64,000 nt of DNA from Tepidiformaceae bacterium (GTDB taxonomy: Bacteria > Chloroflexota > Dehalococcoidia > Tepidiformales > Tepidiformaceae): assembly GCA_965207815.1 (NCBI GenBank), contig OZ242314.1, forward strand, positions 591,234-655,233, written 5' to 3'. The notes under the pieces are model-generated. The model did not search any database and had not been told where the DNA came from. It worked only from the letters and a program-made list of their open reading frames with translations. The first letter of the stretch is position 1; each line of letters begins with the position of its first letter. Positions 2,407-51,819 of this stretch are shown here, piece after piece. The position numbers and the translations under genes were made by a program.

Positions 2407-2424
2407 CCTACCACTGGTCCCAGT
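2407..2424. repeat. Direct repeat copy A (CCTACCACTGGTCCCAGT); its partner is at 8541-8558
   Basis: 17 of 18 positions are identical to 8541-8558. This copy overlaps the stop of the GmrSD-like gene. On the reverse strand it encodes a relic ...NWDQW*, which mirrors the nitroreductase C-terminus VHWDQW*. Confidence 0.55.
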
Positions 2425-3405
2425 TAGCCACCCCCTGCGGCTTCCCCTTCAGATGCGAGAGCAAGCACTTCGTTCTCGACGTACCGCTTGAAGGACTCGA
2501 CACTTGTGAAGTGGCGGAACCCATAGTCGTTTGCGATCTGAAGAGTTGCCTGCTCTTCGTCGAGAAGCAAGGCAACTGGCTCGCTTAGCCCTTCCTGCAT
2601 TCCGTGCGGCCAGGCAAGGTCGAGAATCGCCAGCGGGTCGCCAGTGTCTTGGTGCGAGAGTTCGTGCTCGATTTGGCCTTCAGGAAGACCGTACTTCTGG
2701 ACCCAGCTGTTCAGGGCCGCCAAGACCGCTTGTTCCTCGGTGTCTTCGATGCCTCCAGGGATTGCCTTGGGTGCCGGGACCGGGACAGCCGCCAATGGCT
2801 CAGCCACCGTTGGGGGCGTCTCCTCGTGGAGTAACTCCTCAAGCAGGGCGTTTGCCGCATGCGCCAGTAGCTGCTGCCGCGCCTCAAGGAATTGCGGATA
2901 ATTCTCCGTTTCCCACAGATCCTTCTCCATTGGGATCCACTGGGAGGCCAGCGCGCCGGGGTGTTGGGCTTCGATCTCAGGAAAGTACTCCGAGGGAGGC
3001 TTGGCGCCGATCTGCAAGTTCGTGTCCTTCGTCAGAAAGCAAAAGTTCCCAACGGCGTTCACCTGTGATCGATGGTATTCGTTCCGGTACAGCAGGGCCT
3101 TCGGGAAGATGTGGTGGACCTCAAGGCGGTTCATGCTGCCAAGGAGGCCGGTCTTCAGGGCCAACCCAGTGCCCCAGTCCTGAGCTTCTCCGACCCGCGT
3201 CAGTGCGTACAAAACGGGATAGAAGCGAGCCCCTAGGCTCCAGCCCCGGAAGTGTGCGGGCTCAATTCGCAGGCTGCCGTGCCAGAGGCGCAGTTGTTCC
3301 AGCAACTGGTCAACGCCGTGGTCAGGGTCTTCGATGGCCTCAAGGTCTTGGTCGAGGACGGTCTCGGTTGAGCCGGAGAACCTTCCCCACATGGCGCTTT
3401 GGAAA
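2424..3405 (-). pseudogene. GmrSD-like type IV restriction enzyme, C-terminal fragment (DUF1524/HNH-like nuclease half), separated from its N-terminal half by an IS insertion
   Basis: ORF 2424..3392 contains the LEVHHIFPKALL ... NAVGNFCFLTKDTN motifs of DUF1524. Joining it to 7515..8523 restores ...LYWYFQ-SAMWGRFSGSTE... Confidence 0.8.
3398..3405. repeat. Target-site duplication TTTGGAAA (left copy)
   Basis: An identical 8-mer is at 7515-7522. Each copy directly abuts an inverted-repeat terminus. Confidence 0.85.
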
Positions 3406-3448
3406 GGGGACTATATCGCAAAGTGCCCACGGCTCAGGTAGGGTCGGG
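3406..3448. repeat. Left terminal inverted repeat (IRL)
   Basis: About 40 of 43 positions match the reverse complement of 7472-7514, including a 27-bp perfect outer block. Confidence 0.85.
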
Positions 3449-3450
3449 CG

Positions 3451-4323
3451 GTGAGGAAGCGCCTCCCCCGTACGCCTAAGTCCTGCGCCCATTGCGCGCG
3501 GGAGTTTGTTCCAGATCATGGCAACGCCGTGGCGTGCTCCGATGAATGTCGCATGGAGCGGAGGGCGGCGCGCCGCCGTAAGCGCCGCCGCATATGGAGA
3601 CGCAGGCATACCGGCATCCGATGTTTCGGGTGCTTACAGCGGTTCAAGCCCGAAGGTCTGGAACGCTACTGTTCCGAGTCCTGTCGGGAAGGTGGGCTGA
3701 AGCGCTGCGATTGGGACGACTGCGCGGAACGCATTCGGATCGTTCGAGGTAAGCCGACGCGCTATTGCTCCGAGGCTCACATGGAGGCCGCCAGGCGTAG
3801 CGCTCAGGCCCGATCAGAGGCCGCGCGCATCCGGAGGCCGCGCCGCCGACCGTCCAGAGCCCGTCCGGACAAGCACCTGAAGGCACTTGCTAGGGGCGTT
3901 CTGAAGGTTCATCGGGCACGAATGAAACACACCAAAAGGTCGCGGTTCTGTTCTGTCCAATGTGAACTCAAGGATGCTCGCACGAGGGTACGACGGGCGC
4001 AGAGATATCGCGACCGTTACCGGACCGACACGGCGTTTCGCCGATCCGAAAACCGTCGATCGCGCGGGTTACCATCTGAGCGCCGGCGGGAACGGAAGAA
4101 AGCATCAAGAAAGGCGTTTAGAACGGCAGTTTTCCTACAGAGTGCTGGCCGTTGTGAGTATTGCGGGGTGAAGCTGGGCCCTGATTGGCATGTGGATCAC
4201 GTCATGCCCCTCGTGCGAGGGGGAGCGTCTACGCTAGCGAACTGCGTTGCTTCCTGTGTACGTTGCAACATGAAAAAATCTGCCCGTCCCGCGTACGTGA
4301 GACAGGGCGCGCTCCTCGCCTAG
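3451..4323 (+). CDS. HNH endonuclease with an Arg-rich N-terminus carrying four Cys-x2-C...(F/Y)CS-x2-C zinc-finger-like repeats
   Basis: The C-terminus CEYCGVKLGPDWHVDHVMPLVRGGASTLANCVASCVRCNMKK is an HNH motif. The N-terminal repeats are CAHCAREF..ACSDEC, CFGCLQRF..YCSESC, CDWDDC..YCSEAH and FCSVQC. The GTG start lies 2 nt inside IRL. Confidence 0.75.
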   Translation: MRKRLPRTPKSCAHCAREFVPDHGNAVACSDECRMERRAARRRKRRRIWRRRHTGIRCFGCLQRFKPEGLERYCSESCREGGLKRCDWDDCAERIRIVRGKPTRYCSEAHMEAARRSAQARSEAARIRRPRRRPSRARPDKHLKALARGVLKVHRARMKHTKRSRFCSVQCELKDARTRVRRAQRYRDRYRTDTAFRRSENRRSRGLPSERRRERKKASRKAFRTAVFLQSAGRCEYCGVKLGPDWHVDHVMPLVRGGASTLANCVASCVRCNMKKSARPAYVRQGALLA

Positions 4324-4406
4324 GCGACGCGGGCGCCAGAGAACACCGGCGCAGAAGCACCGGCGTAGTTGCACCGGGGGCCGTGCTCCGGATGCTAGAG
4401 TAGGCA

Positions 4407-4447
4407 GACCGCCCGCCTTGAGGTGCTCTAACCCCGGGCGGGCGGTC
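4407..4447. terminator. GC-rich hairpin between the convergent HNH and transposase genes
   Basis: GACCGCCCGCC (4407-4417) pairs with GGCGGGCGGTC (4437-4447) around a 19-nt loop. There is no clear U-tract, so it may be a bidirectional terminator or only a stable structure. Confidence 0.35.
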
Positions 4448-4488
4448 CACCCTCCAAGCGTATCACCGCCGCGACTCAGGCCCCAGCG

Positions 4489-5427
4489 CTACGCCTCCGC
4501 GATGAGGTCCGCGTAGCGGAGCCGCCTACCGATCATCATGCGCGCCAGCAGGCGCATCTGGTCCAGCGTGTCGAGCTCGCGGACGTTGTGGCGGTTCGCG
4601 AACTCCGTGACGTAGCGGTCGAGGTGCTTGTGGCTCATCCAGTGGTAGGTCCCCATGTAGCCGCGCTTCAGCATCGACCAGAAGGACTCGATGCCCTGTG
4701 TGTGCGCCATGTCGCGGACGTACTCACCCGTGCCATGCCGGACGGCCTCGCGGTTCGGGAGCCGGTCGTAGGCGCTCGCCTCGTCCGTGTAGACCATCGC
4801 CCCGTCGGCGGTGTGGTCCCGCACGAATCCGGTCAGGGTCTCCGCGTCCGTGTGGGCGACGACGGCGGCTGAGACGCGGTTTGTGTCGCGGTCTTTCACG
4901 CCCGCGACGGCGGCCTTGCCCACGGTCCCCCGGCCGGCGCGCAGCTTCTTCGAGGCGTGCTTGTTGGCCTCCTTGCCGCCCACGTAGGTCTCGTCGGCCT
5001 CTACCGGTCCGCTGAACAGCTCGCCGCCAGCTTCGGCAGCGGCAGCGCGGAGGCGGTGCGCCAGGTGCCACGCGGACTTCTGCGTGATCTCCAGGTCGCG
5101 GTGGAGCTTGAGGCTGGACACGCCCTTCAGGCTGGTGGTCAGCAGGTACATGGCGAGCGCCCACGTCTGGAACCCGAGCTTCGAGGACTCCATGACCGTA
5201 CCGGTGCGGACGCTGAACCGCTTGCGGCAGTCGCGGCAGCGGAAGCGCATCGTCTTGTGCTTGGCGCCGTCGAGGACGTTCTGCGAGCCGCAGTGGTGGC
5301 AGGCCACGCCATCCGGCCAGCGCTGCTCGACGAACCAGCGCTCGGCGGTGGCGTCGTCGGGGAACATGCGCAGCAGCGCCGTGAGGCTGATGCCCTCGCG
5401 GTTGCTCTTGCCTGGTGCGTTCCCCAT
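4489..5427 (-). CDS. IS1595-family (ISXO2-like) DDE transposase
   Basis: N-terminal zinc ribbon CHHCGS...CRDCRKRF. The DDE_Tnp_IS1595-like core contains EADETYVGG ... VYTDEASAYD ... IESFWSMLKRGYMGTYHWMSHKHLDRYVTEFANRHN. Confidence 0.9.
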   Translation of the reverse strand: MGNAPGKSNREGISLTALLRMFPDDATAERWFVEQRWPDGVACHHCGSQNVLDGAKHKTMRFRCRDCRKRFSVRTGTVMESSKLGFQTWALAMYLLTTSLKGVSSLKLHRDLEITQKSAWHLAHRLRAAAAEAGGELFSGPVEADETYVGGKEANKHASKKLRAGRGTVGKAAVAGVKDRDTNRVSAAVVAHTDAETLTGFVRDHTADGAMVYTDEASAYDRLPNREAVRHGTGEYVRDMAHTQGIESFWSMLKRGYMGTYHWMSHKHLDRYVTEFANRHNVRELDTLDQMRLLARMMIGRRLRYADLIAEA

Positions 5428-5607
5428 GTCTCCGGCTCCTTTAGAGTAGTATAGTGCCCAAAGCGCACGGAGTCAACGCGCCACCTTGACACCCTCCGGC
5501 CCGTAGGCCCCACTGCTGGGGCGGCTGTCGCACTTGACAACCCGCAAGAATCCGCCCCCATACTGTGACCAGCACAGACGGGCGGCAGCCCGGAGGGATA
5601 CACCTAG

Positions 5608-5760
5608 ATGGCCGACGCTGAGCGCAAGCCTGCGCACCATGCAAAGGGACGCCCACCCCGCCCGTACCAGAACGAGCAGGACCTGCGGATCGACATGTCG
5701 CCCGAGGAATTGGCGAAAGCCGTCCTCAGCGGCAAGGGCGTAGACGCGGAAAGCGACTAG
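5608..5760 (+). CDS. Hypothetical 50-aa protein, not in the ORF track
   Basis: My own translation gives MADAERKPAHHAKGRPPRPYQNEQDLRIDMSPEELAKAVLSGKGVDAESD. GGAGGG lies about 9 nt upstream of the ATG, and a TTGACA box is further upstream. Its stop abuts the tRNA on the opposite strand. Confidence 0.3.
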   Translation: MADAERKPAHHAKGRPPRPYQNEQDLRIDMSPEELAKAVLSGKGVDAESD

Positions 5761-5833
5761 CGCCCCAGGCAGGACTCGAACCTGCGACCCCCCAGGTGGT
5801 AACCGGGCGCTCTATCCTCTGAGCTACTGAGGC
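5761..5833 (-). tRNA. Class I tRNA, formal anticodon ACC (would read Gly GGU); isotype ambiguous
   Basis: Hand-folded cloverleaf: GCCUCAG UA GCUC AGAGGAUA GAGC G CCCGG UUACCAC CUGGG GGGUC GCAGG UUCGAGU CCUGC CUGGGGC G. All four stems are intact. It has discriminator G73 and no encoded CCA. Confidence 0.75.
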
Positions 5834-5857
5834 GCTGGAGCAACAAGGAGGGAGAGG

Positions 5858-5941
5858 CGGAGACGGGGAGATTCGAACTCCCGAAACCCGAAGGCTTACC
5901 CGCTTCTGAGGCGGGCTCCATAACCGCTCGGACACGTCTCC
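5858..5941 (-). tRNA. Class II (long variable arm) tRNA with a Ser-type body and anticodon CAG (Leu codon CUG)
   Basis: Hand fold: GGAGACG UG UCCGAGCGGUUAUGGAG CCCGC CUCAGAA GCGGG UAAGCCUUCGGGUUUC GGGAG UUCGAAU CUCCC CGUCUCC G. It has a perfect 7-bp acceptor stem, discriminator G73, A37 and a 16-nt variable arm. CCA is not fully encoded. Confidence 0.8.
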
Positions 5942-5996
5942 GCTCACTCCCTCCCCCGAACCGTACCAGCGCTCCCGACGGAGGCCCAGCGCGCCG

Positions 5997-6419
5997 TCAG
6001 CGCCACCATTCCTCCTCGCACTGCGCCCCGTCCGTGTTCACGAACAGCCGGTCGTCGTAGAACTCGACCGGCACCAGGCAGCGGTAGGTGGGCAGGTACC
6101 GATCCGGCTGCCCGTACTGCGAGCGGACGGCGGCGGTCTCGTAGGCATGGAGCATCTCCACCAGCACGACGCCCTCGCGGTGGGAGTAGCCGACGCACTC
6201 CGCGTAGACCACGCGCGCCTTCGTAGGGTCGCTGTTGCGGCTCATGACGTTGCGCGTGAGCCGGTCGCAGGCCAAGCGTTCGCGCTCGGCCTGGATCTCC
6301 CTGAGTGAGGGCGTGGGCTCGGGTGCCGGCGTCGGGGGAGGTTCGGCGGCTCCCCCGCAAGCTGCGAGGATGGCCAGCGCGACCACGGCGAGTACAAGAA
6401 CGCGTCGCACGGCTAGCAC
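5997..6419 (-). CDS. Cys-rich lipoprotein (hypothetical)
   Basis: Signal peptide plus lipobox (V/M)LAVRRVLVLAVVALAILAAC, followed by a Pro-rich linker. The GTG start overlaps the stop of the upstream small ORF by 7 nt. Confidence 0.6.
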   Translation of the reverse strand: MLAVRRVLVLAVVALAILAACGGAAEPPPTPAPEPTPSLREIQAERERLACDRLTRNVMSRNSDPTKARVVYAECVGYSHREGVVLVEMLHAYETAAVRSQYGQPDRYLPTYRCLVPVEFYDDRLFVNTDGAQCEEEWWR

Positions 6420-6601
6420 TCGAACGTCCGGTTGTACATCTCACAGGACGCCCGCGAGCCCTGCGCGCAGAGGCGCTCCCATCGCTCGCAGTCGCCCTCG
6501 GAACACGCGTCCACAGCGACGGCGCAGCCGCCCACGATGGCGGCGACGAACAGGACGAGGAACAGGTAGGCGCGGACCGGATAGCGCCGCTGGTCTGTCA
6601 C
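6413..6601 (-). CDS. Small Cys-rich lipoprotein (hypothetical)
   Basis: Within ORF 6413..6787 an internal GTG at 6601 gives VTDQRRYPVRAYLFLVLFVAAIVGGCAVAVDACSEGDCERWERLCAQGSRASCEMYNRTFEC, which has a signal/lipobox pattern. The start and RBS are weak. Confidence 0.4.
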   Translation of the reverse strand: MTDQRRYPVRAYLFLVLFVAAIVGGCAVAVDACSEGDCERWERLCAQGSRASCEMYNRTFEC

Positions 6602-6936
6602 AGAGGAGCCCTCTTGCGGCAGGATGAGGCGAACCTGTGGAAAGCCACCGTCGATCCGACATGGGCCGCAAGGGGGCGCGAGCGCGCCCCATCCCGTGAA
6701 TCCCACGCCGGGGTAGGTGACTTTCCACAGTCGCGCTCGATGCTGCGCGACAGCGCAAGGGGTGTCAAGGTTTCCGGCGGGCGGCAAAGGCTCGGGCGGG
6801 TAGGCGTTTTAGCAGAGGGGCTGGGCCTGCGGCTCAGGCGGTGATACGCTTCGGAGGACCGCCCCGGGGCCCTCAAAGGTCTGGTCGGCCACCTCGGGGC
6901 GGTCTCCCGATTCTACCATCCACAGGCTCCCCGCCC

Positions 6937-7149
6937 ATGCCCGTCTACTGCGTGCGCCCTATCCCGTACGGCGGCGGCTGGTACGTCGCGCCGGAGGGCT
7001 CGCCGTTCGCGCTACAGACCTTCCGGCAGCGCGGGGACGCGATCAGGGAGGCGCGCAAGCTGCGCGGCCGGGAGCGGGGAGAGGTCAGGGTGTACGGCTA
7101 TGACGGGCGCTACAGCTACTCGGACACCGCGCCGTGGCTCGGGGACTGA
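6937..7149 (+). CDS. DUF2188-like small protein
   Basis: From the internal ATG at 6937 the sequence is MPVYCVRPIPYGGGWYVAPEGSPFALQTFRQRGDAIREARKLRGRERGEVRVYGYDGRYSY. This fits the DUF2188 pattern (GW.V...g......f....eAi..Ar.......e..v...dG). Confidence 0.55.
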   Translation: MPVYCVRPIPYGGGWYVAPEGSPFALQTFRQRGDAIREARKLRGRERGEVRVYGYDGRYSYSDTAPWLGD

Positions 7150-7469
7150 AGATCGCCCGCCTCGCGCCACTGCGCGAGTCTCGCCGCCCGGTTCTCCATC
7201 TCGGTGGCCGTAACTCCGTCGAGGATTCCCGAATCCGGTTCCGCGTAGAGCCAGAGGTCGTCGAAGTCGTGCGCGACGGTGAAACCGCACCGGTCGCAGA
7301 GCCAGTTCATTGCATTAATCTCGGTGAGAGGCCCGCCGCAGTCTGTGCAGAACCTGGCAACGAAGTAGATGCGGAGGCAGGGCAAACACTGGCGATCCTT
7401 ACCGAACGGCTCCAGCGTCGCGCCGCAGCACAGGCAGGTGTTCGGCTGCGCGTTCTCATGAATGGCCAT
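7116..7469 (-). CDS. Zinc-ribbon protein (hypothetical)
   Basis: Three CxxC pairs are present: CLCCG..CLPC, CTDCGG and CDRCG. The start (GTG 7472 or ATG 7469) sits at the inner edge of IRR, mirroring the HNH gene at IRL. Confidence 0.5.
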   Translation of the reverse strand: MAIHENAQPNTCLCCGATLEPFGKDRQCLPCLRIYFVARFCTDCGGPLTEINAMNWLCDRCGFTVAHDFDDLWLYAEPDSGILDGVTATEMENRAARLAQWREAGDLQSPSHGAVSE

Positions 7470-7471
7470 CA

Positions 7472-7514
7472 CCCGACCCTACCGTACCCGTGGGCACTTT
7501 GCGATATAGTCCCC
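7472..7514. repeat. Right terminal inverted repeat (IRR)
   Basis: Its reverse complement matches IRL at 3406-3448. Confidence 0.85.
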
Positions 7515-7522
7515 TTTGGAAA
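7515..7522. repeat. Target-site duplication TTTGGAAA (right copy)
   Basis: Identical to 3398-3405. Confidence 0.85.
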
Positions 7523-8523
7523 TACCAGTACAGGAGTCGGTCCCGCTCCCTTGCATCGGTAAGATGGCCGCCACGGGCGTCGATGTAACGAGCCATGATG
7601 GGGAGCGCGTATCGGCCAAAGAGGACGCGGTTGTGGTCTAGGCCCAGCCGTCCCCCGATCAGATTCAGCGCGTGATCGACGCTCTTTTCGGCTCTGGCAA
7701 GGCCGTCCTTAACCGCTTCCGTGGCCTCGTCGTGGAGGTACGCGAATCGAGCTTCACCGGTCACGATGGCGTTGACGTTGCGCAGCAGCCAGTCGAGGTT
7801 GAAGTCGTACCCGTTCTCGTGCCACCGAGACAGGATCGCTTGCATCTCCTCGCGCCCCTCCGGCCATGAGCCGCATATCTTGGCGAGCGCCAGATCGCCC
7901 TGGGACAGCTTGGTACCTCCGCTGTTGACTCGATTGAAGATGTCGACAACCACGTCGATCGTCTTGTCAGTGCCGGTCACCTCCTCGACGTGAAGGTCGA
8001 CCTGGCTAATACCGAGGATTCGGTTCAACCTTCCGAACATCGCACCGGTCTCGGCGGCAATATCGGGGTGCTGCGCTAGGCGTGTGATCTGCTCGCCAAC
8101 CCCGTCGTTCCCCTTCTGCATGAGTGCAGAGACATCGATCCAGAGGGGGTCGTCCTGCATCACAGAGGGCTGGTAGAACCGAAACTCCTCGTTACCGAGA
8201 TGGAAGTACAGTCCGCTGAACGCCCTCTCGCTGCCATCGAAAAAGGTCGGCGGCTTGCCCCGGATGATTCCGTAGAGGGAGGTTATCCGCTGCTGGCCAT
8301 CCAGGAGTAGCCGTACCACCCCTGGTGCAAGATCGTGCTCTCCACGATGGCTGACCCCGTCGGCAGGCGTGACCCACACCAGAAGGCTCCCCACAGGGTG
8401 TCGATGGTAGAGGGAATCCATCAACCCCCTGACCTGGTCGCGATTCCAGACATAACCACGCTGAAACTTCGGCAGCGCCATGTAGCCACTGTCGATGTGA
8501 TTGAGAATGTCCGAGACTTGCAT
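7515..8523 (-). pseudogene. GmrSD-like type IV restriction enzyme, N-terminal fragment (DUF262/ParB-like NTPase half)
   Basis: MQVSDILNHIDSGYMALPKFQRGYVWNRDQVRGLMDSLYHRHPVGSLLVW is the DUF262 signature. ORF 7456..8523 runs into IRR and picks up a 19-aa foreign tail, RGLYRKVPTGTVGSGDGHS. Confidence 0.8.
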
Positions 8524-8540
8524 GGCTGGGCCCCTCAGTT

Positions 8541-8558
8541 CCTACCACTGATCCCAGT
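8541..8558. repeat. Direct repeat copy B (CCTACCACTGATCCCAGT); its partner is at 2407-2424
   Basis: This copy covers the last codons and the stop of the nitroreductase gene. See 2407-2424. Confidence 0.55.
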
Positions 8559-9165
8559 GGACGGTCTCCTCGACCGGCAGCCGCGAGACCGGCCCGAAGT
8601 TTCCCATCGGGTAGCCGACCGGGAGCAGGCAGTACGCCTCGACCGTGTCCGGCAGCCCCAGGATCTCCTTCACCCGTGCGCGGTCGCGCAGACCCAGGGT
8701 CGTCGGCGTCGCCCCCAGCCCGAGGGCGCGCGCTGCCAGCAGCACGTTCTGGACCGCCGGCCAGACGTAGCCTCCGCCGCCCGCCCGCGCCGCGTCCGAC
8801 TGCGGCTCCGGGAACTCCAGGCAGGCGATCACGAGCGCCGGGATCTCGTGCATGTGCTCCATCTGCCAGATCACCGCCTCCCGCATCCGGTCGCGCTTGG
8901 CCTGCGACTGGTGCGGCAGTTCCACGACCGGGTCCGCCGCCATGTAGGCGGTGATGTGCTTGCGGTTCTCCTCCGCCAGCAGGCGCTTCGTCTCCGGGTC
9001 GCGGACGACCACCCAGCGCACGTTCTGCACGTTCGAGCCGGTGGGCGCCTGGTTTCCTGACTCCACCAGCTTCCGTAGCAGCTCCTCCGGAACCGGGTCC
9101 GGCTTGATCCGCCGCATCGCGCGGCAGCTGAACATAACCTCAAACAGGCCCAATTCCTCGGACAT
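8542..9165 (-). CDS. Nitroreductase family protein
   Basis: CRAMRRIKPDPVPEELLRKLVESGNQAPTGSNVQNVRWVVV and the overall length are typical of the nitroreductase fold. Confidence 0.85.
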   Translation of the reverse strand: MSEELGLFEVMFSCRAMRRIKPDPVPEELLRKLVESGNQAPTGSNVQNVRWVVVRDPETKRLLAEENRKHITAYMAADPVVELPHQSQAKRDRMREAVIWQMEHMHEIPALVIACLEFPEPQSDAARAGGGGYVWPAVQNVLLAARALGLGATPTTLGLRDRARVKEILGLPDTVEAYCLLPVGYPMGNFGPVSRLPVEETVHWDQW

Positions 9166-9233
9166 GGCGCCCTCCCTGTCACCTCTCGCGTGTGTCCGTG
9201 CGAGACTACGCGACCCAGCACTGGAGGCTACCC

Positions 9234-10013
9234 ATGCCCGACCTGCTCTACGAGAAGCGCGACCAGTTCGCCGTCTTCACCATGAACCGCCCGGAACGCC
9301 TCAACGCCCTCGGCGGCACGATGATGGACGACCTCACCGAGGCCCTCCGCGACTTCAATGACGACCCTGAGATGCGCGCCGGCATCCTCACCGGCACGGG
9401 CCGCGCCTTCAGCGCCGGCGCCGACCTGAAGGAGATGAACCAGCGCAACGTCGACCGTGGCGACAACGCTGCCCCCATCCGCACCTTCGACCCCGCCAGC
9501 AGCCTCCCCTTCTCCCGCTCCCCCAAGCCGTTCATCGCCGCCATCAACGGGCTCTGTATCGCCGGTGGCCTCGAGCGCGCCCTCGACTGCGACATCCGCA
9601 TCTGCTCGACGGAGGCATTCTTCGGCCTCTTCGAGGTGAAGCGCGGCATCCTCGCCGGCTACGCCATCCACCACCTCGCCCGCCTCATCCCCTTCAGTGA
9701 CGCCATGTACATCCTTCTCACCGGCGACCGCGTCGAGCCCGACGACGCCCTCCGCATGGGCCTCGTGCGGGAGGTGCTCGACCCCGACGAGCTGATGCCC
9801 CGGGCCGAGGCCATCGCCGGCATGATCGCCGCGAACGCACCCCTCTCCGTCGAGGGCAGCAAGTTCATGGCCCAGCAGTGGCGGCAGCTCATGATCGACG
9901 AGTCCTACCGCACCGGCGAGTGGGTCAGCCGGGCCGTCCTCAACTCCGAAGACGCCAAGGAAGGCCCCCGCGCCTTCTCCGAGAAGCGCCCGGCCCGCTG
10001 GCAGGGCCGCTAG
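9234..10013 (+). CDS. Enoyl-CoA hydratase/isomerase (crotonase) family
   Basis: FTMNRPERLNAL, GRAFSAGADLKE and AAINGLCIAGGLE motifs. The start was set to ATG 9234, which follows GGAGG. Confidence 0.9.
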   Translation: MPDLLYEKRDQFAVFTMNRPERLNALGGTMMDDLTEALRDFNDDPEMRAGILTGTGRAFSAGADLKEMNQRNVDRGDNAAPIRTFDPASSLPFSRSPKPFIAAINGLCIAGGLERALDCDIRICSTEAFFGLFEVKRGILAGYAIHHLARLIPFSDAMYILLTGDRVEPDDALRMGLVREVLDPDELMPRAEAIAGMIAANAPLSVEGSKFMAQQWRQLMIDESYRTGEWVSRAVLNSEDAKEGPRAFSEKRPARWQGR

Positions 10014-10031
10014 CACAAGGAGCACCCCGCG

Positions 10032-11084
10032 ATGACCTCGAACGAAGCATCCCTGCGCGTCGGCCTCATCGGAGCCGGCGGCAACATGAAGCTGCGCCAC
10101 ATTCCCGGCTTCCAGGAGACGGGCGAGGTCGAGCTCGTCTCCGTCTGCAACCGCAGCGAGGCCAGCGGACGCGCCATCGCCGAGGAGTACGGCATTCCAC
10201 GCGTCGAGCCGGATCCCGCCACCCTCCTGGCCGCCGACGACATCGACGCCGTCTGCATTGGCACCTGGCCGTACATGCACCGCGATCTGACCATCGCCGC
10301 CCTCGAAGCGGGCAAGCACGTCCTCTGCGAGGCGCGCATGGCTATGAACGCCACCGAGGCCCGCGAGATGCTCGCGGCCTCCGAAGCTCGCCCCGACCTC
10401 GTCGCCCAGCTCGTCCCCGCCCCCTTCGACTTCAAGAGCTGGCGAACCGTTCGCCGCCTCCTCGAGGACGACTCCATCGGCGACGTGCGCGATGTGCACG
10501 TCACCGTCCTCGGCGGCGCGTCGCTCAATCTCGACGCACCCCTCCACTGGCGCGACCGCACCGACCTCTCCGGCATGAACGTGATGGCCTACGGCATCTA
10601 CACCGAGATCGTCGCCCGCTGGTTCGGTCCTACCGGATCTGTCCTCGCCCACGGCGCGACGTTCGTCCGCGAGCGCACGAACGCCGAAACCGGCGAGCGC
10701 ACCGCTATCGAGGTGCCCGACAGCCTCGGTGTCTTCGCAGAACTGGAGCGTGGCGGCCGCGTGACCTACCGGGTTTCCACCGTCCTCCACGCCGCCCCGC
10801 CCGAGGCGAACGGCATCTCCGTCTATGGCTCGGCGGGAACCCTCCACTGGCGTCTCGGCGACACGATGACCTTTGCCCCCCTGGGCGAGGAGCCCGCCCC
10901 CCTCGACCCCGACCCGGGCACAGCCGGCGGCTGGCGCGTCGAGCAGGACTTCGTCGACTCCATCCGCCGGGGCGCCCCCGTCACCCTCACCAGCTTCCCC
11001 GACGGCGTCCAGTACATGAGCGTCATCGAGGCCACCCACCGCAGCCGCACCGAAGGCCGCGCCGTCCCCCTCTCCGAGGTCTAG
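10032..11084 (+). CDS. Gfo/Idh/MocA family oxidoreductase
   Basis: The N-terminal Rossmann motif VGLIGAGGNMKLRHIPGF and the EARMA (EKP-like) region. Confidence 0.9.
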   Translation: MTSNEASLRVGLIGAGGNMKLRHIPGFQETGEVELVSVCNRSEASGRAIAEEYGIPRVEPDPATLLAADDIDAVCIGTWPYMHRDLTIAALEAGKHVLCEARMAMNATEAREMLAASEARPDLVAQLVPAPFDFKSWRTVRRLLEDDSIGDVRDVHVTVLGGASLNLDAPLHWRDRTDLSGMNVMAYGIYTEIVARWFGPTGSVLAHGATFVRERTNAETGERTAIEVPDSLGVFAELERGGRVTYRVSTVLHAAPPEANGISVYGSAGTLHWRLGDTMTFAPLGEEPAPLDPDPGTAGGWRVEQDFVDSIRRGAPVTLTSFPDGVQYMSVIEATHRSRTEGRAVPLSEV

Positions 11085-11170
11085 CGGCCGCGCTCGGCTG
11101 GATGTTTCCTCTGGGGTAGGCTCGAACGCGCGCGTGAGCGGCCCTCCACGCGCCCCGAGGCTCGACGTTC

Positions 11171-12745
11171 ATGTTCTTTGCCGGCGCCGCCGCCAAGTCT
11201 TTCGGAGCGCGAGACGTTATTCGCGACCTCTCGTTCGTCGTCAGCGACGGGGAACGGGTGGGGCTCGTCGGGCCGAACGGTGCGGGCAAGTCGACCGTCC
11301 TCAAGCTGCTGGCGGGCGAGCTCGAGCCGGACGAGGGCGAGGCCGGCTTCCGCGGCGGTCGCCTCGGCTACCTCCACCAGGAAACCGGTCTCACCTCGGA
11401 GCTGACCCTCGTCGCCGAGATGTGGCGGGCCTTCCCCGACGCCACCGCGATCGAGCACGAGCTCACCGAGGTCGCGCACGCCATCGAGAGCGCCGCCGGC
11501 GGCGCCCTCGACTCGCTCATCGAGCGGCAGGCCCAGCTCTTCGACGAGTTCGAGGCCGTCGACGGCTACCGCATCGAGGCACGCATCGGGCGCGTGCTCG
11601 ATGGGCTCGGGTTCAGCACGGAGGATCGCGCGAGGCCCTGCGGCGACTTCAGTGGCGGCTGGCAGATGCGCGTAGCGCTCGCGCAGGCGCTCGTCCGCCG
11701 TCCCGAGAACCTGCTCCTCGACGAACCCACCAATCATCTCGACGGCGCCGCCCGCGACTGGCTGGCCGGAGAGCTCAGCGAGTACACCGGTTCACTCATC
11801 ATCGTCACGCACGACGGCCCCTTCCTCGACCAGGTCGCGGGACGCATCCTCGACCTGCGCGACGGCGTGGTCACGTCGTACACCGGGAACTACAGCGACT
11901 ACCAGCAGCAAAAGGCCGCCAGGCTCAAGGCCCAGGACCGCGCCGCCGCCCGCCAGGAGCGTGAGATCGCCCGGCAGGAGCGCTTCATCGAACGCTTCCG
12001 GGCGAAGGCCACGAAGGCCTCCGCCGTGCGCAGCCGCGAGCTCCAGGTGTCGAAGATCGAGCGCATTGAACGCACCCGCAAGGAGGAGGCCGTCTCCTTC
12101 AGCCTCGAGTCCTCGGGCCGCACCGAACGCGATGTACTCCTGTGCAGCGGCGTCTCCCACGCCTACGACGACCACCTCGTTCTGCTCGACATCGACCTGC
12201 ACGTCGAGCGCTCGCAGAAAGTCGTGCTCGTGGGCCCGAACGGGAGCGGCAAGAGCACGCTCCTCAAGATCGCCTCGGGCGACATCCGCCCGAGCGAGGG
12301 TGTCGTCGAGTGGGCTCCGCGCGCCATCCCCGCCTACTACGACCAGCACCAGGATGAAGCGCTCGACCCCGAGCGCACCGTTCTCGAAGAGGTTTCCGCG
12401 GCCGCCCCCGGAGCGCCCGAGGTGCGGCTGCGCTCGATTCTCGGCCAGTTTCTCTTGCGCGGCGACGCCGTCTTCAAGCGCGTGGCTGTCCTTTCCGGGG
12501 GCGAACGCAGCCGCGTCGCCCTCGCCAAGCTCCTCCTCAGGCCCGCCAACGTCCTCCTCCTCGACGAGCCGACCAACCACCTCGACCGCACCACCCGCCG
12601 CAAGCTGATCGAGGCCCTTGAGCGTTACGACGGCACCCTGCTCTGCGCGAGCCACGACCCCGCCCTCGTCGAGCGTGTCGCCACCCGCGTCTACGAGGTC
12701 GCCGATTGCGACATCCGCGAAGTGCTGGAGCACCGCAAGGACTAG
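11171..12745 (+). CDS. ABC-F family ATPase with two ABC domains and no TMD
   Basis: Two Walker A motifs (GPNGAGKST and GPNGSGKST), two signature motifs (FSGGWQMR and LSGGERSR) and an inter-domain coiled linker. Confidence 0.9.
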   Translation: MFFAGAAAKSFGARDVIRDLSFVVSDGERVGLVGPNGAGKSTVLKLLAGELEPDEGEAGFRGGRLGYLHQETGLTSELTLVAEMWRAFPDATAIEHELTEVAHAIESAAGGALDSLIERQAQLFDEFEAVDGYRIEARIGRVLDGLGFSTEDRARPCGDFSGGWQMRVALAQALVRRPENLLLDEPTNHLDGAARDWLAGELSEYTGSLIIVTHDGPFLDQVAGRILDLRDGVVTSYTGNYSDYQQQKAARLKAQDRAAARQEREIARQERFIERFRAKATKASAVRSRELQVSKIERIERTRKEEAVSFSLESSGRTERDVLLCSGVSHAYDDHLVLLDIDLHVERSQKVVLVGPNGSGKSTLLKIASGDIRPSEGVVEWAPRAIPAYYDQHQDEALDPERTVLEEVSAAAPGAPEVRLRSILGQFLLRGDAVFKRVAVLSGGERSRVALAKLLLRPANVLLLDEPTNHLDRTTRRKLIEALERYDGTLLCASHDPALVERVATRVYEVADCDIREVLEHRKD

Positions 12746-12811
12746 CCTCCCCCGGTCTCCCCGCCGCCCGTGTAAGGTTCCCCCGCGCCACCCACGCAGC
12801 GGAGGAAACCA

Positions 12812-14038
12812 ATGCCCGAGGCCATTCCCTTCACCGTCGCCGTCCCCGACGAGGCTATCGAGGACCTCCACCGGCGCATCGACAACACCCGCTTCGCCCC
12901 CGACTTCGCCAACGAGGACTGGCGCTTCGGCATGAACGGCGAGTATCTGCAGTCGTTCCTCCACTCCTGGCGCCACGAGTACGACTGGCGCGAGACCGAG
13001 GCCCGGATCAACTCGTTCAACAACTACCAGGTCGACTTCGATGGCGTGCCTCTCCACTTCATCCACGAGAAGGGGAAGGGCCCCAACCCCATGCCCCTCA
13101 TCCTCACCCACGGCTGGCCCTGGACCTTCTGGGACTTCGAGCAGGTCATCCGTCCCCTCACCGACCCCGCCGCCTACGGCGGCGACCCCGCCGACGCCTT
13201 CGACGTGGTCGTGCCCTCCCTTCCCGGCTTCGGCTTCTCCACGCCGCTCCGCGTCGACGGCCTCCAGACGAGCAAGGGCGTGGATATGTGGGCTGACCTC
13301 ATGACGAACGTCCTCGGCTACGACCGCTTCGCCGCCGCCGGCGGCGACTTCGGCGCGATGATGTCGGGCACCCTGGGCGCCCGCTATCCGGACCGGGTCC
13401 TGGGCGTCTACGTGACCCTGCCCTCCCTCCCCGCCCTCTCCGTCCCCGACAACGTCCCCGAGCCCGGCAGCACGAGCCAGCTGGTGGGCATGCTCATGGG
13501 TCCGGCGATGCGCACCAGCCCCGACGACTTCGCCCCCGAGGAGCGCCACCGCTACGGCGTCATGGAGGATCGCTGGAAGACCGCGCTGTCCCACATCGCC
13601 GTCCACACGACCGACCCGCAGACGCTCGCCTTCGCCCTGCACGACTCGCCCGCCGGGCTCGCCTCCTGGCTCGTCGAGCGCCGCCGCAACTGGAGCGACA
13701 ACGAGGGCAACGTGGAAGAGGCGTTCTCGCGCCAGTTTCTGCTCGACACGGTCAGCATCTACTGGTTCACCGAGAGCTTCGTCACGACCTCACGCTGGTA
13801 CTGGCACACCTTCCGCACGCCGCCGCAGGCCGTACCCGACCCGGAGGCCGCCCGGCAGGTGCCGTTCGGCATGCCCGTTTTCCCCAAGGAGATGATCTTC
13901 GTGCCCCGCGCCGCCGCGGAGGCCACGGCCAACGTGATCCACTGGACGGAGCATCCGCGCGGAGGCCACTTCGCCCCCTCCGAGGTCCCGGACGTCTTCA
14001 CCGACGACGTCCGCGCCTTCTTCCGCAAGCTCCGCTAG
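12812..14038 (+). CDS. Epoxide hydrolase (EH N-terminal domain plus alpha/beta hydrolase)
   Basis: FTVAVPDEAIEDLHRRIDNTRF..., HGWPWTFWDF and the C-terminal HWTEHPRGGHFAPSE. Confidence 0.9.
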   Translation: MPEAIPFTVAVPDEAIEDLHRRIDNTRFAPDFANEDWRFGMNGEYLQSFLHSWRHEYDWRETEARINSFNNYQVDFDGVPLHFIHEKGKGPNPMPLILTHGWPWTFWDFEQVIRPLTDPAAYGGDPADAFDVVVPSLPGFGFSTPLRVDGLQTSKGVDMWADLMTNVLGYDRFAAAGGDFGAMMSGTLGARYPDRVLGVYVTLPSLPALSVPDNVPEPGSTSQLVGMLMGPAMRTSPDDFAPEERHRYGVMEDRWKTALSHIAVHTTDPQTLAFALHDSPAGLASWLVERRRNWSDNEGNVEEAFSRQFLLDTVSIYWFTESFVTTSRWYWHTFRTPPQAVPDPEAARQVPFGMPVFPKEMIFVPRAAAEATANVIHWTEHPRGGHFAPSEVPDVFTDDVRAFFRKLR

Positions 14039-14045
14039 GGAGGGG

Positions 14046-14456
14046 TCAGGCGCGCCCCTCCACGAACGCGAGCACGTCGCCCGCAATCTCGAGCGCTCGC
14101 GCCGAGTCCGTCGCGTCGTAGGCCTCCGCCGGGATGCCCCCGGGGATGGTCGTCGGATAGCGGGAGCCGAGGTCGTATTTGTCCAGCAGGATCGCCATGG
14201 ACCGGATGGCCTCGAACGTCGGGTCGAACGCCACCGCATCCTCGCAAAGGTCGGCCAGCGCCCCGCCCCACACCGCCTCCGCCCCCTGTGCGAGCAGGAA
14301 CGCCGTGACCGCCTTTTCCGCGCACTGCTGCGCGAGGAAGCAGGCCAGCGCGTGCCGCCCCGCCTCCGCTACCAGCTGCCCGTCGGCCAGGTCGTGGCGC
14401 GACTGCGCGAGCCAGCGCGCCGCCTCACCCTCGCCGCTGCGGGGTGACTCAGGCAT
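14046..14456 (-). CDS. HEPN domain protein, putative toxin of a HEPN/MNT pair
   Basis: AARWLAQSRHDLADGQL...ACFLAQQCAEKAVTAFL...LGSRYP is HEPN-like. It overlaps the upstream MNT gene by 8 nt. Confidence 0.8.
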   Translation of the reverse strand: MPESPRSGEGEAARWLAQSRHDLADGQLVAEAGRHALACFLAQQCAEKAVTAFLLAQGAEAVWGGALADLCEDAVAFDPTFEAIRSMAILLDKYDLGSRYPTTIPGGIPAEAYDATDSARALEIAGDVLAFVEGRA

Positions 14457-14775
14457 TGTCCGCCAGCGCCCGACGCAGCACCGGGTCGTCCTCCGCCAAC
14501 CCTTCGAACTCGTCCGGCGTGTACACCCAGAAACGAGTCGCTACCCGCGGCTGCAGGTGCGAGACGAAAAAGTCCGCGCGCCGCCGGAACGGCTCGTCCG
14601 TCTCCCGCACGAGCACCAGGTCCAGCGCGCTCCCCACGTCCACCTCCCCCGTCGCGAGGTCGCCTGTCAGGTACGAACGCTCGACGCCCAGCATCGGCAG
14701 CTCTGCCGCCATGCGCTGCAACTCCGCCTCCAGCAGCTCGCGGCGGCGTTCGGCGAAGCCGATCATCACCGCCAT
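14449..14775 (-). CDS. Nucleotidyltransferase (MNT) domain protein, putative antitoxin
   Basis: YLTGDLATGEVDVGSALDLVLV matches the minimal NTase GSxxxG...DxD pattern. Confidence 0.8.
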   Translation of the reverse strand: MAVMIGFAERRRELLEAELQRMAAELPMLGVERSYLTGDLATGEVDVGSALDLVLVRETDEPFRRRADFFVSHLQPRVATRFWVYTPDEFEGLAEDDPVLRRALADNA

Positions 14776-14780
14776 CGGCG

Positions 14781-15773: not shown

Positions 15774-15783
15774 CGCGAGACCC

Positions 15784-16938: not shown

Positions 16939-16948
16939 CTCCAGCCTC

Positions 16949-18313: not shown

Positions 18314-18393
18314 TGTTCTTCCCCCGGACTGCGTCAGCGTGTCCCCGCACTATACCCAGCCCCGCAAGGCGATTCAGGGGTTGGAACGGCGTC

Positions 18394-19750: not shown

Positions 19751-19839
19751 CGCTGGTTCAACCGTGCTGAGGAGTCTGGCCGAAAGGCGTAGGCTGCGCG
19801 AACCCACGCCACGGCGTCAAAGCACGGAAGGAGAGAATT

Positions 19840-20646: not shown

Positions 20647-20661
20647 GCGGAGAAGAGAACC

Positions 20662-21474: not shown

Positions 21475-21523
21475 CGGCCGCGCCCTCGCGCTGCCACATC
21501 ACGCAGAACCGGAGGAGAGAACC

Positions 21524-22333: not shown

Positions 22334-22347
22334 GGACGCCCCGGTGC

Positions 22348-22749: not shown

Positions 22750-22935
22750 CGCAGCCTCCCCCGGCCGCCCCGGCCCGCCGATCGTTACAGGGTTTCGCAG
22801 GGGGAACGCAACCCCTCCGCCCTCCTCTGCTCCCCACCACGCTCCGTATTGCCCGACATTACGAAGTCTTAACGTTCGGCGGGCGGCGCAGGCGTTGGAG
22901 TCGTACGCTAGAAGGAGGCTGGAGGTGAGCGTGGC

Positions 22936-25067: not shown

Positions 25068-25288
25068 GGTCTCGTGCCTCTCTCGATCGGGGAATATCTC
25101 GGGGTCGGCGGTGGTGCCAACCGGGCCTTGTGAGCTTAGCACAGACGTTCGGAAGTGGGCGGCTGCAGCCCAGTGTCGAAGGCCAGCGTCCCCGCTCTCG
25201 GGAACCAACATCCAGGAGAGGCTGCTGAGTCGGGAACTTAGGCCCGACGCGGTCTATTGCTGAGGCTGCACTTCCGAACCGGAACATC

Positions 25289-51816: not shown

Positions 51817-51819
51817 GCG

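Follow-up and report, generated by a model that had tools for sequence, protein, structure and literature searches.

A transposon-borne bacterial tRNA gene with a serine-type body and a CAG anticodon: a potential missense tRNA associated with a mobile element

Natural tRNAs whose body and anticodon belong to different amino acids are raw material for genetic-code change and for programmed mistranslation, and two groups of them have been documented in bacteria, namely the tRNAProX family and the allo-tRNAs, the latter of aberrant structure. The allo-tRNAs, from bacteria that are mostly soil dwellers, have a long variable arm, are charged by SerRS and carry non-serine anticodons, including those that read CUG, CUA, UUA and UUG (PMC5389517). 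In E. coli, those of Ser identity with Leu anticodons place serine at Leu codons and, on induction, are toxic and arrest growth; their genes are found in polycistrons with irregular tRNAs and in the vicinity of transposon or toxin-antitoxin genes, and numerous copies are inactive (PMC5389517). Neither SerRS nor LeuRS uses the anticodon (PMC7373986), and a synthetic chimera that joins a tRNA-Ser body to the Leu anticodon GAG is charged by E. coli SerRS, such that Leu codons are read as Ser in vitro (PMC11099018). The tRNAProX molecules of Streptomyces and Kitasatospora, also natural bacterial tRNAs in which the amino acids of body and anticodon differ, combine a proline body with anticodons that begin with A34 and specify Ala, Asn or Thr, and a ProRS paralogue is dedicated to them (PMC11415595). 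In CTG-clade yeasts (Candida, Ascoidea) a chromosomal tRNA-Ser(CAG) goes together with a CUG codon that is reassigned, or used in two senses, across the genome. The tRNA-Ser(CAG) of Ser2-clade yeasts has A37 (PMC11415595).

Here we describe a class II tRNA gene at 5858..5941, on the minus strand, of a 64,000-nucleotide stretch of DNA from a soil bacterium (the window, i.e. the whole stretch that was analysed). The gene is intact and a hybrid, combining a tRNA-Ser-type body with a CAG anticodon. As with the allo-tRNAs, Ser identity (here, identity elements shared in silico) is paired with a Leu anticodon, and the gene has an irregular tRNA as its tandem neighbour within a transposon. The two differ in architecture, in that the tRNA-Sec-related allo-tRNAs have 8/4 or 9/3 acceptor/T-stem arrangements (PMC5389517), whereas that of the class II tRNA is 7/5, its would-be eighth acceptor pair being U8 against C65, which cannot pair. 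Unlike the allo-tRNAs, it also has the ordinary D arm and acceptor stem of tRNA-Ser, and it is demonstrably cargo of a recently moved IS1595-family transposon. With the yeast tRNA-Ser(CAG) it shares the serine body and CAG anticodon and, with that of the Ser2 clade, A37; such a hybrid is possible in both settings because SerRS is blind to the anticodon. The CTG-clade gene, however, is eukaryotic and chromosomal and goes with a changed use of CUG, whereas here CUG stands at Leu positions. A likeness to the mistranslating tRNAs of Streptomyces, drawn in a preliminary description of this DNA, is not supported, since the class II tRNA has C34 and a Ser-type body and none of the defining features of tRNAProX (proline body, A34, ProRS paralogue); the allo-tRNAs are the nearer precedent.

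On the minus strand, which the preliminary description did not specify, ARAGORN reports a tRNA-Leu(cag) at 5856-5941, and 5858-5941 matches the Rfam tRNA model with 55.4 bits (E = 3e-9). The 7-bp acceptor stem (GGAGACG/CGUCUCC) is linked by U8 and G9 to the D arm (UCCG-AGCGGUUA-UGGA), which is followed by G26, an anticodon arm with a 5-bp stem (CCCGC-CUCAGAA-GCGGG), the 16-nt variable region UAAGCCUUCGGGUUUC, and a T arm, likewise with a 5-bp stem (GGGAG-UUCGAAU-CUCCC). The variable region forms a 5-bp stem (A:U, A:U, G.U, C:G and C:G) with a UUCG loop. The anticodon loop is fully canonical (7 nt, with C32, U33, A37 and A38), the conserved bases for tertiary interactions are all kept and, across 84 nt, there are no stem mismatches and no losses of conserved bases. 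The structural details previously listed are all correct on re-reading the sequence, and the description of a flawless class II cloverleaf is apt as regards a well-formed gene, but not as regards thermodynamics; the minimum free energy fold (-37.8 kcal/mol) differs from the cloverleaf (-34.3 kcal/mol), as it also does for a canonical tRNA-Ser control. G73 is followed by the 3' trailer CCU (5855-5857), i.e. the full CCA is not encoded, and the difference claimed earlier from the bacterial-type tRNA-Gln at 23417-23490, which ends in CCA, is confirmed.

The body of the class II tRNA is serine-type, not leucine-type. With serine and leucine covariance models of our own construction, which are distinct from the tRNAscan-SE isotype models, it scores 75.2 bits (Ser) versus 47.1 bits (Leu). 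The models correctly separate E. coli tRNA-Ser (n=4; serU, serT, serV and serX, 80-86 for Ser versus 38-51 for Leu) from E. coli tRNA-Leu (n=7; leuQ/P/V, leuW, leuX and leuZ, 39-49 versus 83-89), and further controls behaved likewise, with 58.4 versus 81.8 for a Synechococcus tRNA-Leu and 86.2 versus 42.8 for a metagenomic tRNA-Ser(GGA). Position-specific log-odds (Ser minus Leu) sum to +58.9 bits over all positions, to +35.5 bits when the D arm is left out, and to +27.7 bits when both D and anticodon arms are left out; the strongest Ser-favouring contributions come from G73, A3:U70, C48 and G2:C71. In reference tRNA sets drawn for the most part from viral contigs and in part chosen by D-arm patterns, the discriminator is A73 in 89/90 class II Leu tRNAs, G73 in 86/87 Ser tRNAs and A73 in 16/17 Tyr tRNAs; A73 also occurs in nine of ten genome-derived Leu tRNAs. 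The base pairs G2:C71, A3:U70 and C11:G24, which are acceptor- and D-stem determinants of E. coli tRNA-Ser, are all present. GGA, with which the acceptor stem begins, occupies positions 1-3 in 52/87 Ser tRNAs, and the 16-nt variable region is within the 14-22 nt range of the Ser set. The class II tRNA has G15:C48, where the Leu set has A15 (81/90) and U48 (82/90), and it does not have the GGAAU-GG-AGAC-type D arm of bacterial tRNA-Leu. Among tRNAs of viral contigs its D-arm motif has 72 carriers, 63 of them Ser and none Leu; all 23 of the class II tRNAs nearest to it are Ser (23/23), and a metagenome scan with the acceptor and D stems had a canonical tRNA-Ser(GGA) as its sole match. The serine-type body that had been proposed is thus upheld by covariance models, log-odds, nearest neighbours and discriminator census alike.

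Two features depart from those of a typical tRNA-Ser. The D arm (GG-UUAU-GGA) is, at 16 nt, one nucleotide short, 51/87 of the Ser tRNAs having 17; the missing nucleotide corresponds to position 20b, which in the T. thermophilus SerRS-tRNA structure helps to orient the variable arm, and the efficiency of serylation is therefore uncertain. The anticodon, CAG, is of leucine type, neither of the serine forms (NGA or GCU) being present, and its loop, CUCAGAA with A37, contrasts with the UUCAGG(U/G) and G37 of six sampled bacterial-type tRNA-Leu(CAG) genes.

The class II tRNA gene is cargo of a 4.1-kb transposon, the ~48-nt terminal inverted repeats of which lie at 3406..3453 (GGGGACTATATCGCAAAGTGCCCACGG...) and 7467..7514, flanked by copies of an 8-bp target duplication, TTTGGAAA, at 3398-3405 and 7515-7522. 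The transposase (4489..5427, minus strand) has Pfam matches to DDE_Tnp_IS1595 and to a Zn ribbon (E = 3.6e-37 and 2.6e-07), the latter N-terminal, and by this domain arrangement, its inverted repeats and its 8-bp duplication the element belongs to the IS1595 family. In the ISfinder classification, 8-bp target duplications and passenger-carrying subgroups are both features of the family; we know of no described IS1595 member with tRNA or tRNA-like genes, and a literature search for tRNA-carrying members found none. The insertion splits a GmrSD/HEC-05 defence gene into a C-terminal half (2424..3392, minus strand) and an N-terminal, DUF262-containing half (7523..8523, minus strand). Excision of the transposon in silico restores a 660-aa GmrSD ORF, from which it follows that the insertion is recent. 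The transposon has been recently active and is otherwise intact, and the location of the tRNA gene in a mobile element, as first described, is borne out by the inverted repeats, the target duplication and the restored ORF.

A sigma-70-like transposase promoter (TTGACT-17-TATACT, 5448..5476, minus strand), found by scanning and conserved in the relative L240, sits downstream of both tRNAs of the element. The promoter scan found no consensus promoter upstream of the class II tRNA. Alignment with relatives reveals an extended -10-like motif, TGgTACGGT (5960..5968, minus strand), 18 nt upstream of tRNA position 1, as a putative promoter element; it is orthologous to the TG(T/A)TACGGT of the relatives' TTGACA...TACGGT promoter, the -35 of which is gone here together with a 12-nt deletion. 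Downstream of the class II tRNA, after a 24-nt spacer, lies an irregular tRNA or tRNA-like element of Gly type (5761..5833, minus strand), in which ACC stands where the anticodon would be and the discriminator is G73; in this order the two form a small tRNA module that occupies the interval between ORF140 and the transposase gene. In related transposons, the acceptor, D and T arms of the Gly-type element are near-invariant, whereas the anticodon arm is hypervariable and swapped wholesale, often without U33 or a 7-nt loop and with compensatory stem changes at four pairs. Judged from these alignments, the Gly-type element is clearly not constrained as a decoder. Its variable loop was also considered as a guide RNA, and a by-eye comparison with target duplications and flanks showed no relationship.

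Of five closely related elements, this one alone has the class II tRNA; the four closest relatives of the transposon have only a hairpin homologous to the anticodon arm, with a loop of 10-12 nt. The relatives come from long-read soil metagenome assemblies (ENA ERZ2506xxxx and ERZ2507xxxx series); the transposase homologues at ~78% identity (L116-L118) are not accompanied by a tRNA. This distribution suggests that the transposon family does not stably maintain the class II tRNA, and the idea of "deliberate" mistranslation, raised in the preliminary description, is difficult to reconcile with a tRNA unique to one copy.

Relatives of the class II tRNA are likewise scarce elsewhere. When phages, plasmids and E. 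coli genomes were searched by BLAST with the tRNA region, only weak and partial matches came up, all annotated as tRNA-Ser and none as tRNA-Leu, and a pattern combining the D arm with CAG had no match in IMG/VR viral contigs. The exact D-arm variant with the T loop, the anticodon being left free, gave 0 matches in the representative genomes of 185,579 species; the source genome therefore lies outside that collection. Scanning genomes for a D arm like that of Ser tRNAs, followed by CUCAGAA, yielded 34 stretches, where by a hand estimate ~35 are expected by chance, and the only tRNAs among these were archaeal tRNA-Leu(CAG) and one degenerate gene of a Gemmatimonadetes MAG, which was the only related hybrid found.

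With respect to the genetic code, CUG is an ordinary and abundant Leu codon in the host. In 14 host genes, CUC occurs at 48.5 and CUG at 36.8 per 1000 codons, so that CUG is not, as had been supposed, the most used Leu codon. The 14 alignment columns in which the transposase gene has CUG contain 61% Leu together with other hydrophobic residues in 119 homologues, Ser being absent from the six commonest residues. Nothing points to a genetic-code change in the host, and a reassignment like that of the CTG clade, which had been offered as a parallel, is contradicted both by the abundance of CUG and by its Leu/hydrophobic positions. Given this usage, the outcome of Ser delivery would be mistranslation rather than reassignment, and strong expression should be highly deleterious because CUG makes up 3.7% of codons.

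We infer a pathway in which the class II tRNA would be transcribed from the retained extended -10 element, processed by RNase P and 3' trimming, completed by CCA addition and charged by SerRS, the latter because it is the long variable arm and the acceptor end, rather than the anticodon, that SerRS recognises. LeuRS would be expected to reject it because of G73 in place of A73 and G15:C48 in place of A15:U48. Serine would then be delivered at CUG in competition with the host tRNA-Leu(CAG), the predicted consequence being proteome-wide Leu-to-Ser mistranslation, toxic if strong, with no change of code. By analogy with the allo-tRNAs and the engineered chimeras, serylation and decoding of CUG as Ser are plausible. 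We give about even credence to the class II tRNA being a potentially active hybrid missense tRNA, with a Ser body and CAG, of the "irregular, mobile-element-associated" kind; we say only potentially active because the family comparison suggests that it is not stably maintained. Its expression is probably weak, and its evolutionary lifetime probably short. Weighing against activity are the lost -35, the short D arm, the frequency of CUG, the absence of the tRNA from the four closest transposon relatives and the lack of decoder constraint on the Gly-type neighbour. A more far-reaching proposal, which on present evidence is distinctly unlikely, is that this IS1595-family lineage carries a tRNA-derived small-RNA module that here includes a functional, Ser-charged CUG reader, i.e. 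a mobile source of Leu-to-Ser mistranslation. Were this so, the tRNA, horizontally transferable with the transposon, could act as a toxin, as a weapon in conflicts or as a diversifier under stress, and its conserved Gly-type partner, the anticodon arm of which is freely exchanged, would represent a new class of functional RNA encoded by transposons.

Other explanations have to be weighed against that of a potentially active missense tRNA. Both tRNAs may be non-decoding, tRNA-derived RNA elements, for example RNase P/Z processing signals by which the transposase mRNA is cut away from cargo or read-through transcripts, with anticodons that are irrelevant and drift. The behaviour of the Gly-type element, in which acceptor, D and T arms are kept while the anticodon arm is replaced and stem changes are compensated, is consistent with such a role, as are the retention by relatives of only the hairpin equivalent to the class II anticodon arm and the separate position of the transposase promoter downstream of the tRNAs; many allo-tRNA-like genes near transposon or toxin-antitoxin genes are, moreover, translationally inactive (PMC5389517). 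The class II tRNA itself, however, has a canonical anticodon loop on a 5-bp stem and all its tertiary bases, and once matured it would decode CUG anyway, SerRS and the ribosome being blind to "purpose"; we regard a non-decoding role as possible, if doubtful. It is unlikely, in our view, that the gene is an inert relic, i.e. an unexpressed former tRNA-Ser gene of the transposon lineage, the anticodon of which has drifted and which is heading for the deleted state of its relatives. Its singleton status, its pattern-level absence from the 185,579 representative genomes and IMG/VR, and the loss of the promoter -35 with the 12-nt deletion all accord with decay, and disagreement between anticodon and isotype often marks decaying tRNA-derived elements, according to the tRNAscan-SE authors (PMC8450103). 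Against this, 84 nt are without a stem mismatch, yet at least two anticodon changes separate CAG from any Ser anticodon, a combination that makes neutral decay improbable; in addition, the -10 element is kept, and the transposon is recently active and otherwise intact.

That the gene encodes a genuine, LeuRS-charged leucine tRNA, either lineage-specific or of archaeal type, is extremely improbable, even though archaeal tRNA-Leu(CAG) genes share with it an NCCGAGYGG D arm and a CUCAGAA loop with A37, and one Thermoplasmatota gene shares even the 16-nt D arm. The archaeal genes all have A73 and GCG... acceptor stems and score about evenly on the Ser and Leu models (~72/72, versus 75/47 for the class II tRNA), and on these grounds an archaeal-type tRNA-Leu identity is rejected. 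The prevalence of A73 in bacterial-type and genome-derived Leu tRNAs (89/90 and 9/10) argues against a leucine tRNA more generally, and the host context is bacterial (bacterial-type tRNA-Gln, TetR, P450 and a sigma-70-like promoter). Selection for a toxic or regulatory role, be it in a toxin-like or addiction module, as a stress-induced diversifier of the proteome, or as a weapon or counter-weapon in conflicts between phages and host defences, has some appeal in that induced allo-tRNAs of Ser identity with Leu anticodons kill E. coli, and in that, in soil bacteria, genes of this type are found clustered with toxin-antitoxin systems and the genes of transposons (PMC5389517); the element has, furthermore, landed within a defence gene and encodes an HNH nuclease. 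We nevertheless consider such selection very unlikely, as the class II tRNA is not conserved across the transposon family, no partner antitoxin, dedicated synthetase or regulator is recognised within the element (nor any aminoacyl-tRNA synthetase gene in the element or the scanned ORFs of the window), and no related hybrid is found elsewhere except the degenerate Gemmatimonadetes case.

If the class II tRNA is active, a structurally canonical tRNA-Ser(CAG) on a just-moved transposon would show that a code-breaking adaptor can spread horizontally by means of a simple mobile element. The system is compact and testable, comprising one 84-nt gene, one candidate promoter and a clear prediction of Ser at CUG. 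The conserved tRNA-like element, whose anticodon arm is hypervariable, calls for an explanation and is worth study in itself.

The remaining cargo of the transposon appears in part variable and in part conserved. ORF140 (5997..6419, minus strand), which lies immediately upstream of the class II tRNA gene and in the same orientation, is a lipoprotein-like variable cargo gene found only in this genome; a search for homologues returned nothing except an entry that is probably ORF140 itself. The transposase has relatives on plasmids and in viruses, but these were too distant for an informative comparison. Comparison with closer relatives identifies a DUF2188 gene (6937..7149, plus strand) as a conserved component of the transposon family. 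At 3451..4323, on the plus strand, a domain search finds a protein rich in Zn ribbons with a C-terminal HNH nuclease domain, the N-terminal part of which is homologous to a 247-aa protein of the transposon relative L003, an element whose own target duplication is CAATGCAA.

ARAGORN places three tRNA genes in the window, all supported by the Rfam tRNA model: the gene of interest, called as tRNA-Leu(cag) (5856-5941, minus strand), an adjoining 'tRNA-Gly(acc)' (5760-5833, minus) and tRNA-Gln(ctg) (23417-23490, plus). The first, hereafter tRNA(CAG), scores 55.4 bits (E=3e-9) with the Rfam model at 5858-5941 on the minus strand, a strand that the preliminary description omitted. Its RNA reads, 5' to 3', GGAGACG UG UCCG-AGCGGUUA-UGGA G CCCGC-CUCAGAA-GCGGG, then the variable region UAAGCCUUCGGGUUUC, then GGGAG-UUCGAAU-CUCCC CGUCUCC G. 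The acceptor stem, D arm, G73, the 16-nt variable region including its 5-bp stem and the CU-CAG-AA loop bearing A37 are all as first described, as is the missing encoded CCA, for which the genome has CCU, whereas the tRNA-Gln ends in CCA. In the minimum-energy structure from ViennaRNA (-37.8 kcal/mol, versus -34.3 for the cloverleaf), the D-arm strand is paired to the variable arm; a canonical tRNA-Ser control likewise fails to fold as a cloverleaf, and we therefore give this result no weight.

With the anticodon left free, the D-arm motif of tRNA(CAG) was found in 72 tRNAs in viral contigs, 63 of them Ser, 4 Tyr, 3 Cys, 1 His, 1 Gly and none Leu. A bacterial-type tRNA-Leu reference was collected by a second scan and, after cloverleaf parsing, the reference set comprised 87 distinct Ser, 90 Leu and 17 Tyr class II tRNAs. 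The discriminator is G in tRNA(CAG) and in 86/87 Ser, versus A in 89/90 Leu and 16/17 Tyr; its tertiary pair is G15:C48, as in Ser, versus A15 in 81 and U48 in 82 of the 90 Leu. A position-specific classifier gave log-odds of +58.9 bits toward Ser, +35.5 bits without the D arm, which was left out because the Ser set had been selected on it, and +27.7 bits without the D and anticodon arms, values at or above the leave-one-out median of real tRNA-Ser; with the anticodon masked, the nearest neighbours were all Ser (23/23). Infernal covariance models made from 44 Ser and 50 Leu sequences scored tRNA(CAG) at 75.2 and 47.1 bits, respectively, compared (Ser/Leu) with 86.2/42.8 for a metagenomic tRNA-Ser(GGA), 85.7/48.9, 82.6/50.5, 81.3/38.3 and 80.4/41.3 for E. 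coli serU, serT, serV and serX, 58.4/81.8 for Synechococcus tRNA-Leu(UAA) and 39-49/83-89 for E. coli leuQ/P/V, leuW, leuX and leuZ. The Ser-minus-Leu margin (+28 bits) falls a little below the +32 to +43 seen for canonical tRNA-Ser. Model scores, log-odds, neighbours and discriminator together bear out the serine-type body originally proposed, and that the gene is a true tRNA-Leu is barely credible. Its D arm is 1 nt shorter than in most bacterial tRNA-Ser, and the combination of this D arm with its T loop occurred in none of the representative genomes of 185,579 species.

Scanning genomes for a Ser-like D arm together with CUCAGAA also turned up archaeal tRNA-Leu(CAG) genes, with A37, in Aenigmatarchaeota and Thermoplasmatota MAGs (L086, L098, L104, L114). 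Their D arm is of the same style and their anticodon loop identical to that of tRNA(CAG), making them a pitfall when 'Ser-like' is judged on the D arm alone. We rejected an archaeal-type tRNA-Leu because the archaeal genes all have A73 and GCG-type acceptor stems and score about equally with the bacterial Ser and Leu models (about 72/72; 58/58 for the Thermoplasmatota gene), and because the gene lies in a bacterial host context. In a Gemmatimonadetes MAG (JANYCP010000310.1; L107, 1068-1152), another bacterial tRNA-like gene of class II, with a CAG anticodon and G73, leans toward Ser (53.7 versus 32.8 bits) and is probably degenerate, given mismatches in its acceptor (2:71) and anticodon stems.

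The claim that the gene is transposon-borne stands. The IS1595-family element has terminal inverted repeats of ~48 nt (3406-3453 and 7467-7514), bordered by an 8-bp direct target duplication (TTTGGAAA). When 3406-7522 is removed in silico, one uninterrupted GmrSD reading frame of 660 aa re-forms, from which it follows that the insertion is precise and recent. The transposase (Pfam E=3.6e-37) is served by a sigma-70-like promoter of its own; the element further encodes a DUF2188 protein, a Zn-ribbon/HNH protein, the lipoprotein-like ORF140 and the two tRNAs. The literature searched, itself of incomplete coverage, yielded no report of tRNA genes on IS1595-family elements. The GmrSD/HEC-05 defence gene that the element breaks in two constitutes a 6.1-kb segment (2425-8540) flanked by an 18-nt direct repeat, CCTACCACTG(G/A)TCCCAGT (2407-2424 and 8541-8558). 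The entire cassette is missing from a metagenome contig (L001/L002) that is 96.5-98.6% identical to 1-2424 and 8541-23490, which suggests, on this comparison, that a single defence gene was inserted or deleted between the TetR and nitroreductase genes.

Transposases 88-96% identical to that of the window are present on four other contigs (L240, L005, L003 and L004), which share with it the DUF2188 gene, a ~180-bp conserved stretch, the Gly-like tRNA and the inverted repeats, the latter not visible in L240, a 1.8-kb fragment; L003 has the same repeats with another 8-bp duplication, CAATGCAA. Between the ~180-bp stretch and the Gly-like tRNA lies a segment that differs per element and always encodes a different, unrelated small lipoprotein or membrane-anchored protein (window 5997-6419, minus; L003 4956-5504; L004 4853-5428; L005 4846-5437); ORF140 has no homologue among 5.8 billion protein clusters besides probably its own record. 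The Gly-like element (window 5761-5833, minus; L240 170-241; L003 5587-5658 and 4149-4220; L004 5558-5632; L005 5558-5631; L243 5064-5136) has near-invariant acceptor, D and T arms in the sub-family, with its anticodon arm swapped wholesale; the 17-nt anticodon arm is the sole difference between the window and L240 copies, the transposases of which are 96% identical. Stem pairing is preserved through compensatory changes; decoding by this element is unlikely because its loops often lack U33 or a 7-nt length, and it could serve as a signal for RNase P/Z processing.

The class II tRNA is absent from all four relatives. Upstream of the Gly-like tRNA, each has a conserved promoter-like TTGACA...TG(T/A)TACGGT motif and a GC-rich 9-bp hairpin, GUGGCCCGC-CUCCGAAGAA-GCGGGCCAC, with a loop of 10-12 nt (L240 133-170; L003 5551-5587; L004 5518-5558; L005 5522-5558). 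Eighteen nt of this hairpin match the anticodon arm of tRNA(CAG) (GCCCGCCUC...AGAAGCGGG) save for a 3-nt loop difference, in an otherwise collinear context, and on this alignment the two are homologous. The window retains the extended -10 (TGgTACGGT, 5960-5968) at a distance of 18 nt ahead of the first tRNA position; the -35 has been lost by a 12-nt deletion. The simplest reading, short of proof, is that the lineage once had a whole class II tRNA, of which the relatives deleted all but the anticodon hairpin. That two insertions should have assembled a perfect tRNA round an existing hairpin is much less probable. Under loss or gain alike, a complete class II tRNA is not stable in this family. 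More distant relatives (transposase about 78% identity) have no tRNAs of any kind, and in a 71% relative the Gly-like element is located downstream of the transposase.

CUG, first taken as likely the most used Leu codon, ranks second in 14 host genes (36.8 per 1000 codons, versus 48.5 for CUC). In 119 homologues of the transposase, Leu (61%) and further hydrophobic residues occupy the positions of its 14 CUG codons, the same holding for its CUC codons, and its Ser codons align with Ser. The genetic code is unchanged in the host, so that a working tRNA(CAG) would cause mistranslation.

Neither SerRS nor LeuRS reads the anticodon, the long variable arm being what SerRS depends on (PMC7373986). 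In vitro, an E. coli tRNA-Ser chimera given a Leu anticodon reads Leu codons as Ser (PMC11099018). In E. coli, natural allo-tRNAs that combine Ser identity with Leu anticodons place Ser where Leu is encoded and, once induced, arrest growth (PMC5389517). On these grounds we adopt the reading that tRNA(CAG), if transcribed and matured, would yield Ser-tRNA(CAG) competing at CUG codons, to which we give about an even chance. Against it we count the weakened expression signals, the atypical D loop, high predicted toxicity, the relatives without a class II tRNA and the clearly non-decoding neighbour. That neighbour lends some plausibility to a tRNA-derived structural or processing RNA, which we nonetheless consider doubtful. 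An unexpressed relic, compatible with the lost -35 and set against the retained -10 and intact cloverleaf, is rather unlikely, and a selected toxin-like function, against which the lack of conservation of the gene in the family counts, is highly improbable. The gene as first described is thus confirmed, and the meaning originally given to it is upheld in part. Judged by sequence, the gene appears to be a canonical-architecture, transposon-borne tRNA-Ser(CAG), a singleton of putative activity; this Ser-tRNA(CAG) candidate, possibly short-lived or silent, is unusual and directly testable.

The nearest precedent is the allo-tRNAs of soil bacteria, which have Ser identity and Leu anticodons, including CUG readers, and are found in polycistrons alongside irregular tRNAs and close to transposon or toxin-antitoxin genes, many copies being inactive (PMC5389517). 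tRNA(CAG) would act like these yet, with a 7/5 acceptor/T architecture rather than their defining 8/4 or 9/3, is not itself an allo-tRNA. Of the likenesses proposed previously, that to the CTG-clade yeast tRNA-Ser(CAG) holds for the combination of body and anticodon, whereas reassignment is the yeast's alone, CUG here being abundant and at Leu positions; that to Streptomyces mistranslation extends solely to the broad notion that body and anticodon disagree, nothing further being common with tRNAProX. 'Hybrid' tRNAs are a category recognised by the authors of tRNAscan-SE, comprising candidate code-breakers and decaying elements (PMC8450103).

Elsewhere in the window, synteny with the related contig breaks off precisely where tRNA-Gln has its 3' end (23490; region 23417-25211). 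The junction lies within a large ORF for a serine recombinase (23268-25211, minus) that also overlies tRNA-Gln on the opposite strand, which suggests an island integrated at this tRNA. A lower-GC stretch holds a type I restriction-modification system (44282-54003; hsdR 44282-47455, hsdS 49005-50414, hsdM 51820-54003), near which an LRR protein is encoded at 31976-34099 and a hybrid histidine kinase/response regulator at 34370-36817. What looks like a toxin-antitoxin pair, a 136-aa HEPN-domain protein with a 108-aa partner overlapping it (14046-14775, minus), is sited in conserved host DNA outside the transposon.
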